Positions 40,830-43,579 of a DNA stretch of 64,000 nucleotides are shown piece after piece. The position numbers and the translations under genes were made by a program. Position 1 is the first letter of the stretch. The number at the start of each line of letters is the position of its first letter. The notes under the pieces were generated by a model. It made no database searches and was not told where the DNA came from. It was given only the letters and a program-made list of their open reading frames with translations. The stretch is from Eledone cirrhosa (taxonomy: Eukaryota), in contig OZ024765.1 in the NCBI GenBank assembly GCA_964016885.1, positions 21,576,001-21,640,000 of the forward strand, in the 5' to 3' direction.

Positions 40830-41007
40830 ATATAAATACTTTTTTTTTTTATCTTATTTATTTTTTTTATTATTTCTGTTTCTAAACTACTTCCAAATGA
40901 CTCGTACATATTGATACATGCTTGTGCAGGTGTATATATGTATATCTTTGTGTATGTATATATATATATATAATATAAAATCAAAAGATGGTTAAAAGAG
41001 TTCCAAG

Positions 41008-41053
41008 TATTTTATTATGCGCATTTCAAAAACAAATATCATCAGATAAAATA
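41008..41053 (-). ncRNA. HHR with deleted stem II
   Basis: TATTTTAT CTGATGA TATTTGTTTTT GAAAT GCGC ATA ATAAAATA. Confidence 0.6.
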
Positions 41054-41709
41054 GGGAGACATGATATGAAGCTTAAAAAACACTTGCCAGCAGTGAAGTG
41101 TTAAATCAACATATGAAAAATAAAATAAGATGGATATATGAGATTGGAAAAAAGGAAAGGAAGAGGGGAAGGAAAAAGAAAGGAAGAAAGAATATAGATA
41201 GAAGAAAAAAAATAATAATAAGGAAAGGATGACGAAGGAGGAGTATAAGAAGGAAGGATGAGAGAGGAGGAGAAATGAGTGAGAGAGAGAGAGATAACCT
41301 TTAATACTGAGAAACACTGTCTCAGAGAGAAAAATAAAAAAAAAAACGTAAGATAATACATAATTTTTAAAAAAATTAAGAAATTAAAAGTTAATGAGGT
41401 TTATGAATGGTGATGCTTATGATTAAAGAAAAAGGAATTAAGAATACTATTTATTTAAGGTTTATATATTGAAGGGTTTAATAAGATGTGCGAAAAGGAA
41501 TTTATCAAAAATATGTTTCTCTAATGGTAATATTAGTATATATTAAAAATAAAGATTTGTATGGCCGAGAATATAAGGAAAATGCTATAGTGAGTTATAA
41601 GATGAATTAAGAAGTAATTGAGAAGTAAAAGTTGCAGATTAAAGATTAGAAATTAAAAAAGAAGAAAATTAGGGGACCGCTAACGACATAGTATGAGTAA
41701 TATTGCATA

Positions 41710-41885
41710 ATTGTTTCTACTTTAGGCACAAGGCCAGCGATTACCCAGTGCATTACTGGTACTTTATTTTATCGACCCCGTAAGGATGAAAGGCAAAGTC
41801 AACCTCGGCGGGATTTGAACTCAGATCGTAAAGGGACGTAACTATGCTGGAAAGCATGGCGTCCAACCCTCTACCGATACTGCTA
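41710..41885 (-). mobile_element. SINE family 1 nested in the PLE 3'UTR
   Basis: B box and core present. Confidence 0.9.
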
Positions 41886-43547
41886 ATAATATACTGAAAT
41901 AAGGTAGAAAGATGGGTATATTTGTAAAAAATATAAAAGCATTTGAGAAAAGAAGATTTTAAACTAATTAGGTAGTAAGATATTAGCTGTATACTTTATG
42001 GAAAGTTCTATGGGATTTATGCAAGCAGAGCGAAAATAAATACGTACGTCTATTTATTATAGAATTAAAATTAGAGATAATGGTAAATTTCTCCGCTAGG
42101 CAGAGATTACATTTTCTGGATAGGGAAGAATTAAGGTAAGGAGAAGCGTTGCAAACCTTCCTCCAAGAAATGTTGTAGTTAATATTTTTGTCCTTTAAAA
42201 ACCATATGAGTTCTGAGAGTGCCGTGTTAGTTCTTTTAAGTTGGTATTTAAAAGAAGAATTGTGATTATAAAATCTTGCTTTAAAGGAAGTGGAAGTGGA
42301 ACCAAAATAGGTAAAAGAATTGGTACCAGTTATAACCTTACATTCATACACTAAATTTTTATCAAGACATTGGTTACTAAGAGGACATTTAGTTCTAATA
42401 GGGCAATTGCAATTAGAATTAGAGAAATTACCAGAGTAATTAGCAAGTGACCCAGTATTATTTATAGAAGGAATTGAATTGGATGGAAGCATTTATCTAA
42501 GGCCCTAAAAAATAGTTTAGGAATATTACTAATAATAGAGAAAAAGGAGCATTGTACCAAATCATATTTTTATATCTAGGTCCTTTCTTTATGTTATTGG
42601 AATGCTTATAACTAACTATATTACTATAAGTTCCTCGATAATTGGTTTCTTTACTGTATTTAATTTTATCAGGATAACCGGCTCTGGAAAGCGCATTATT
42701 GTAATAATTGGCTCTAGCGTCAAAGATAACCTTATTAGAAGATAGATTTGAGATTCTTTTTTAACATTACTGACTGCATTTTTAACGTTAATAGGGTGGT
42801 TAGATTTAAAATTAACATAATTTAGATTCTCATTGTCTTTATGGTAAGGGTAATATAGGCCGGTGTCAAGATTAAGGGATATATCCAGGAAGTTGGCTAG
42901 TTTGAGGTTGTTTTCAAATTCTATTTTTAGGTTATGGTGCTTAAATAGATCAAGTATATTATTCTTAATAATATTAAGGCTAACTAAGTTACAGTTTAAG
43001 ACAGTAAAAAGAGCATCGTCACGAGAAATTCCACCGCAAAGTTGAGGAATTTTCCGATTTAAAGAATTCAAAATAAAGATTCCAATCAAGTCCGTCAATT
43101 GCGCTGAATCCGACGAACCCATTGTGATATCAAAATTGTTGGAAGTATCAGCTCTAGTCCAATATTCGTTGTTGAATTCCAGGATAGTTTTTCTTGTGGT
43201 CAGAATGATGTACAGTTCATCGGTGGTGATGTCAGAATATTTAAATGCAAAAGAGAGATCGTTGTTGAGGAGTGAAGGCCAAATAGAAGAATAGTAACTG
43301 GCAATGTCAAACTGAATAAATTTTTGTTTGTTTTTATTATTCAGGTCATTGAACCAGTTAATTACATCAGATGTACCAATCCATAAATTTAAGTTAGAAA
43401 TAGAGCAATTAGAACGAACCTGTGGGATAATTCTATCCAAGATGGATTTACTTTTATATTTATACTCCAGTCCTATAAACTGTTGAGTGCTACTTATCCG
43501 ATATTTGCATTGCTTTATTGTGCTACAATAAAACTCATCTCTTACAT

Positions 43548-43579
<32 letters not shown>

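Follow-up and report, generated by a model that had tools for sequence, protein, structure and literature searches.

A decayed Hydra-clade PLE with an inverted tail, and one-tailed head-to-head pairs in one window of Eledone cirrhosa DNA

Anatomy of the insertion at 40970-43548

The window, the whole 64,000-nt stretch of Eledone cirrhosa DNA that was analysed, is TA-rich animal DNA with many terminus families, several of them with hammerheads. At 40970-43548 (locus C), the minus strand carries a 5'-truncated, frameshifted RT-GIY-YIG element whose tail-less end lies in (TA)n at about 40972. In tblastn, the homolog P0001 aligned with the RT remnant at 43497-42784 (minus strand, 41% identity, E = 6e-45) and with the C-terminal endonuclease (EN) at 42459-42013 (minus strand, 32% identity, E = 5e-17). 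By homology, the 5'-truncated RT core and thumb start at an SK-x-ILDR motif and occupy 42493-43450 (−) with at least two frameshifts, followed at 41983-42492 (−) by a CxCx5C linker and then, C-terminally, a GIY-YIG-type endonuclease that lacks CCHH and carries CxxC and CxH. The T/C-rich 3'UTR, recognised by sequence (41115-41982, −), is split by an inserted SINE-like repeat of about 190 nt (41698-41891) with at least ten further matches in the window. A type I hammerhead remnant (41008-41053, −) precedes the 3' end at site X, which runs without a tail into (TA)n (40970-41007, −). This minus-strand order of truncated RT, GIY-YIG domain, 3'UTR and tail-less terminus agrees with the original prediction.

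The ORF breaks off at 43450, and an inverted tail of about 98 nt (43451-43548, +), belonging to the same family as the ORF, is joined straight to the break with no TA tract at the junction. Its first ~9 nt overlap the main arm's end site, and its far end adjoins (TA)n. The tail aligned with 37045-36945 at 89% identity over 101 columns in opposite orientation (E = 6e-32), and the terminus 40963-41086 aligned with 37029-37177 in the same orientation. Since 37045-36945 directly follows the hammerhead terminus in another copy (locus A), this sequence is the family's tail, and its inversion directly at the 5' truncation point had been foreseen correctly. The inverted tail holds a bulged hairpin (43464-43488, +) with a 4-bp lower stem, a 2-nt bulge, a 4-bp upper stem and a 7-nt loop. 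An open frame through the inverted tail was rejected as coding, as homology ends at the SK motif. Locus C is a decayed, 5'-truncated insertion of an unnamed Penelope-like retrotransposon (PLE) of the Hydra clade, with (TA)n as its target. Part of its ORF was present in 5 of the 8 sequencing runs listed (2 studies), with no RNA run among those. A solo tail of another family, whose full terminus is found at 44200-44385, lies between TA tracts at 43550-43645 (−) and adjoins the locus C tail.

Assignment to the Hydra clade

Its motifs make the element a PLE of the Hydra clade and not a Naiad; the comparison with published Hydra proteins was by eye. In Craig et al. (2021, PMC8557442), the Hydra clade is marked by an EN that is C-terminal and devoid of CCHH, by a linker of the form CxCx5C, by the motifs CxxC and CxH, by hammerheads and by insertion into (TA)n. 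In our element, the GIY-YIG endonuclease aligns C-terminal to the RT, the linker of the window peptide reads CNCPIRTKC, no cysteine pair lies between GIY and YIG, and CNLC and CLH are found near the EN end. The family also has a canonical hammerhead near its 3' end and inserts into (TA)n. Naiads share the (TA)n target, the one-ended tail and inverted truncated copies, but are described as having an N-terminal EN with CCHH and no canonical hammerheads (PMC8557442), and none of these three features is present here. Because the EN is C-terminal, the linker is CxCx5C, CCHH is absent and a hammerhead is present, the earlier label 'Naiad-type' was mistaken.

Among the best 150 of 4720 EN relatives, CxCx5C was found in 97, CxxC inside GIY..YIG in 0 of the 138 with a recognisable GIY..YIG, and an RT preceding the linker in 6 of the 6 long matches with an RDD motif. 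The RWK/DKT region of the element was lost to truncation; in its three nearest RT homologs, DKT is present together with RWK or RWR. Neither P0001-3 nor the window peptides matched a genuine Pfam family, and PDB gave no relative.

As described, Hydra-1_Obim, Hydra-2_Amil and Penelope-13_HM have the same domain order, CxCx5C linker, lack of CCHH, CxxC and CxH motifs, canonical hammerhead and (TA)n target, and Penelope-13_HM also has an attached inverted 5'-truncated copy (PMC8557442). Hydra-1_Obim, compared by eye, is a different family by its terminus, and the tail of about 100 nt contrasts with the 30-40 nt given there for the Hydra clade. Two more decayed Hydra-type ORFs lie in the window at 15095-17204 (−) and 62360-64000 (+), the first ending with a hammerhead and a contiguous tail.

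Sister loci and hammerheads

Three further loci carry termini of the same family. Locus A (36940-37189, −) has an intact hammerhead, site X and a contiguous tail ending in a TA-rich tract. Contiguity of tail and hammerhead terminus had been predicted for this locus over 36940-37215, and it was indeed observed; the last part of that span is instead an inverted 27-nt piece at the 5' junction (37190-37216, +), which stops short of X. Locus B (37445-37782) is a head-to-head pair of two arms that both end at X without a tail, with 4 substitutions between the arms, 2 of these common to other copies. Locus D (47453-47615, +) is a single tail-less terminus between TA tracts. The copies at 37437-37599 (−), 37588-37785 (+) and 47468-47628 (+) show 92-94% identity to locus A. 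The proposal that 37445-37780 and 47453-47615 are ORF-less copies was right as to copies, but the former is two head-to-head arms, neither tailed, and not one copy; the reading of the small islands as PLE termini was right. Three of the four family loci share the position of their 5' junction (37190, 37610, 47453), an internal AT palindrome that lies upstream of the hammerhead. A near-identical inverted duplicate (22018-22194 / 37235-37409) flanks locus A; where it meets A there is an 18-nt direct repeat.

Searched with a type I hammerhead descriptor, the window yielded 9 matches, against none in any of 20 shuffles, and a relaxed descriptor gave 14 matches versus 0-2 in shuffles. The type I matches in the family lie at 37136 (−), 37678 (+), 47520 (+) and 41045 (−). 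The motif is intact at A, the right arm of B and D, where sequence and fold predict a type I ribozyme. At locus C, where a hammerhead-bearing terminus had been predicted, the hammerhead was recognised, but it is damaged: stem I, the core and the palindromic stem III are retained, and a 25-nt deletion between two TGATGA repeats took out the 5' arm of stem II. As the deletion removes one arm of this stem, the ribozyme at C is probably dead. In Rfam, no hammerhead appeared among 150 of 430 matches listed, which held only microRNA-like noise.

Truncated-PLE minimal hammerheads and non-LTR retrozymes (PMC4209133; bioRxiv 10.64898/2026.07.22.740005) resemble these loci in their PLE-derived solo copies and opposite-strand pairs 100-700 bp apart, the latter reported by Cervera 2014 (PMC4209133), and in their palindromic helix III. 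Retrozymes are described as tandem monomer arrays, whereas loci A, B and D are truncated ends. Elsewhere in the window, 17288-18107 holds an ORF-less hammerhead unit of about 402 nt in partial tandem, plus an inverted tail-less arm. This retrozyme-like unit contains the ATGCAAAT octamer word and shows the sequence past site Y, the far end of the tail, which is not TA-like. Hammerheads with a U3-A8 core variant were seen at window 36729 (+) and at 1695 (+) of a metagenome contig (L001), and very long stem II inserts (75-90 nt) at 23170, 55283 and 45986.

Head-to-head pairs with one tail

We collected 16 head-to-head pairs from many families by a masked self-comparison and targeted comparisons of the window, leaving out pairs of RTE elements, self-matches of satellites, matches that link separate loci, and 15095-18297, which is broken up by other insertions and would count as one-tailed. 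Exactly one tail was present in 14 of the 16 pairs and two tails in none; in the asymmetric pairs, one arm ends at X and the other continues 40-160 nt to (TA)n. The two pairs with no tail on either arm are locus B and 9177-9310. Were tails drawn independently, at most half of the pairs should be asymmetric (p = 0.002). The extensions 24054-24100 and 36832-36896 were seen once each and lack the strict hairpin; their exclusion leaves 12 of 14 (p about 0.007, calculated by hand). An assembly fold-back artefact was rejected, as the pairs end asymmetrically at family-specific sites and their flanks are not mirrored.

The pattern is a strong tendency, not a universal rule, and is known from one window. 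The original prediction held that each insertion joins a tailed and a tail-less cDNA in opposite orientation; as a rule this fails, fitting one of the four family loci, and as a tendency it stands in the 14 of 16 pairs. In the family, C fits, A has a contiguous tail plus the 27-nt piece, B has two tail-less arms, and D has a single tail-less arm; single arms, tailed and tail-less, are also present elsewhere in the window.

A second tail-only inversion was found at 23355-23419, with 94% identity to the contiguous tail 48327-48391. Probable further cases at 30347-30450 and 48604-48664 have the same piece before different terminus lengths, with no contiguous copy in the window. In tail-only inversions, the piece abuts the main arm and does not repeat it, as seen at C (with its overlap of about 9 nt) and 23355-23419, and probably at 30347-30450 and 48604-48664. 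The pairs 53013-53572 and 53636-54757, whose tails are short (40 nt), lack both the strict hairpin and a hammerhead match, and may come from another PLE clade, possibly Naiad.

The spacer between arms was at most 14 nt in 9 of 14 measured pairs, most of these with 98-100% identical arms. The chance of such a short spacer is about 0.13 per pair (p = 9e-6), a statistic for which arm lengths were entered by hand, with tail-only cases and two other pairs outside the set, and in which palindromes are easier to find. Two independently truncated cDNAs would not explain near-perfect palindromes in so many pairs, which points to a snap-back or annealing step in many insertions. In pair P16 the arms are identical at only 71 of 80 positions. 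This divergence, and the variants in locus B that are common to other copies, suggest that the two arms may stem from different templates.

A bulged hairpin at site X

The tails begin with RCTC, followed by a stem of 3-7 bp, a bulge of 2 nt and GRGY. An anchored script detected this bulged hairpin in 14 out of 23 segments (10 families), with a per-segment shuffle rate of at most 1.6%; of the 9 segments without it, 2 were later judged not to be tails. Pairing in the upper stems is kept although their sequences vary, and A-U forms the outer pair in 10 cases and G-C in 4, so that covariation shows the structure at X. The descriptor was derived from the same window tails, and the outside checks are L001 and three published consensuses. 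By eye, the hairpin is visible in the Hydra-2_Amil 3' end, the Hydra-2_Ajap 3' end and the Hydra-1_Ajap 5' end, but goes unmentioned in the text of PMC8557442 as far as covered; three other consensuses in its supplement lack the strict hairpin. In an 8-mer search of this supplement, the 3' hairpin word stood in its context in three Hydra consensuses and nowhere else, the remaining matches being unrelated. We found no description of a conserved PLE tail hairpin in the literature searched, with subscription papers outside its scope.

In all 13 comparisons, the distance of site X from the hairpin base was between −1 and +8 nt, and in four it was exactly 4 nt; in the others, TA microhomology blurs its position. 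The X sites are all AT-rich and target-like. The hairpin probably positions the RT. Whole-tail folding energies were not unusual (z −1.0 to +1.1, 7 tails), and MAFFT neither aligned the hairpins nor placed the C tail under the A tail, so the evidence for the hairpin is that of the anchored script. L001, the one related locus among 594 candidate stretches, is a tandem Hydra-like unit in which the ORF end is followed by a hammerhead with U3-A8 core, the hairpin and the ORF start. With the hairpin between hammerhead and ORF start, this order indicates that the next unit begins with the tail. The exact terminus pattern gave 0 matches in metagenome contigs.

Possible mechanism of insertion

Two cDNA starts are likely. 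The explanation that we prefer, with confidence evenly divided for and against it, is that the target is nicked twice and that X- and Y-primed cDNAs on a tandem transcript are joined directly, as at C, or after snap-back. The template would run through ORF, 3'UTR, hammerhead, site X and tail, the last being the ~100 nt with which the next unit begins, as far as site Y. This layout is seen in locus A and L001; the transcript itself is inferred. Both strands of the TA target would be nicked and one cDNA primed per nick, one at X and one at Y, as suggested by Poseidon biochemistry and the one-tail rule; X would lie at the 5' foot of the conserved hairpin. At locus C, an X-primed cDNA of about 2.3 kb and a Y-primed cDNA halted on reaching X would have been joined head to head by their 3' ends. 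In many short insertions, one cDNA end would snap back or anneal at a small palindrome to give equal arms. Insertions with a single arm exist as well.

In LINE-1, 5' inversion occurs by twin priming, where two primers from one target yield an inverted piece at the 5' junction, as would be the case here. The present element differs from LINE-1 in that the internal start is fixed at X, palindromic overlap of the arms is frequent, and poly(A) is absent. In the PLEs, the closest biochemistry is that of PAc, a Poseidon element of Anolis, which cleaves and extends both strands, with RT initiation near a stem-loop at two sites bounding the tail and with sense RNA as template in vitro (Frangieh et al. 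2024, PMC11167929). PAc belongs to another clade, its tail lies within the ORF, and inverted insertions are absent from the main text. Its RT starts are alike on both strands, with no coupling of start site to strand shown, so nothing shown there enforces one X plus one Y. Tailed arms sometimes extend far beyond X (P16, P17, locus A, 15095-17204), and a Y cDNA thus need not stall at X. Also against the preferred explanation, the fit is clean in only one of the four family loci, and a single cDNA with fold-back accounts equally well for near-identical arms with short spacers.

The main alternative of this kind, which we consider rather unlikely, is that a single Y-started cDNA snaps back and the EN cuts or resolves the copied strand at the TA-like X, with tail-only inversions arising by later deletion in an unstable palindrome. 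The equal, near-identical arms and the one tail per pair would follow, the AT-rich, target-like X sites suit such cutting, and Craig et al. (PMC8557442) attributed the tail to EN-mediated resolution. It demands, however, deletions ending a few bases from X at C, 23355 and probably 30347, and offers no route to arms from different templates (P16, B) or to a longer tail-less arm (P5, P8, C). Self-priming on an antisense template, with the tail optional and unlinked to priming order, is how palindromes at inverted PLE junctions, of the kind also seen here, have been read (Arkhipova 2013, PMC3846280). We give it a low probability: it leaves exactly one tail and the tail-only inversions unexplained, and sense RNA works as template in vitro (PMC11167929).

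Both cDNAs could also come from one unit-length RNA by LINE-1-like twin priming, the inverted piece being the element's own 5' end (the tail as the start of the 5'UTR) and the intervening sequence being lost. The hairpin does open the 5' end of the published Hydra-1_Ajap consensus, and in L001 it is found upstream of the ORF start, but tailed arms mostly continue through X into the hammerhead, which needs a tail downstream of the terminus and makes this origin improbable. It appears very unlikely that the ORF arm and the inverted tail were inserted independently and came to touch by chance. TA tracts here do gather many termini, solo tails and stacked termini exist (43550-43645), and B may be two events; yet the 43450 junction has no TA tract, the piece is of the same family although more than ten families are present, and the layout recurs at 23355.

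Extended to the clade, the preferred two-nick explanation suggests a tentative and somewhat doubtful proposal, namely that Hydra-type PLEs insert by an asymmetric dimer: the hairpin would set an internal RT start about 4 nt upstream, a partner RT would start at the far tail end on the other nicked strand, and the cDNAs would be joined directly or after snap-back. If true, a single rule would underlie three PLE features, namely tail, inverted pLTR and junction palindromes, with the hairpin serving as the clade's RNA recognition element.

Relation to published PLEs and further content of the window

Published work on PLEs already describes one-ended tails, inverted copies and two sites of RT start. 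The element adds a further dead copy to the Hydra clade, laid out as a limiting case of PLE structures already in print; the window adds the one-tail rule and the tail hairpin, both shown in this one window only. No paper on twin priming or snap-back in PLEs was found in the literature searched (subscription papers outside scope), and the origin of PLE tails and inverted repeats is described as an open question (PMC8557442; PMC11167929). Direct predictions for the existing in vitro assay follow from the one-tail rule, the tail-only inversions and the covarying hairpin, which keeps a fixed distance to the tail-less end. The same features form a simple signature by which short TA-flanked islands, of which such genomes have many, can be annotated.

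RTE-like LINE ORFs lie at 31375-34467 (−), 19917-21626 (−) and 34627-36264 (+), one of them of 1030 aa and apparently intact, and 18472-20092 makes up an inverted pair. A DD(E/D) transposase fragment, presumably of the mariner-like family, is present at 25545-26102 (−).
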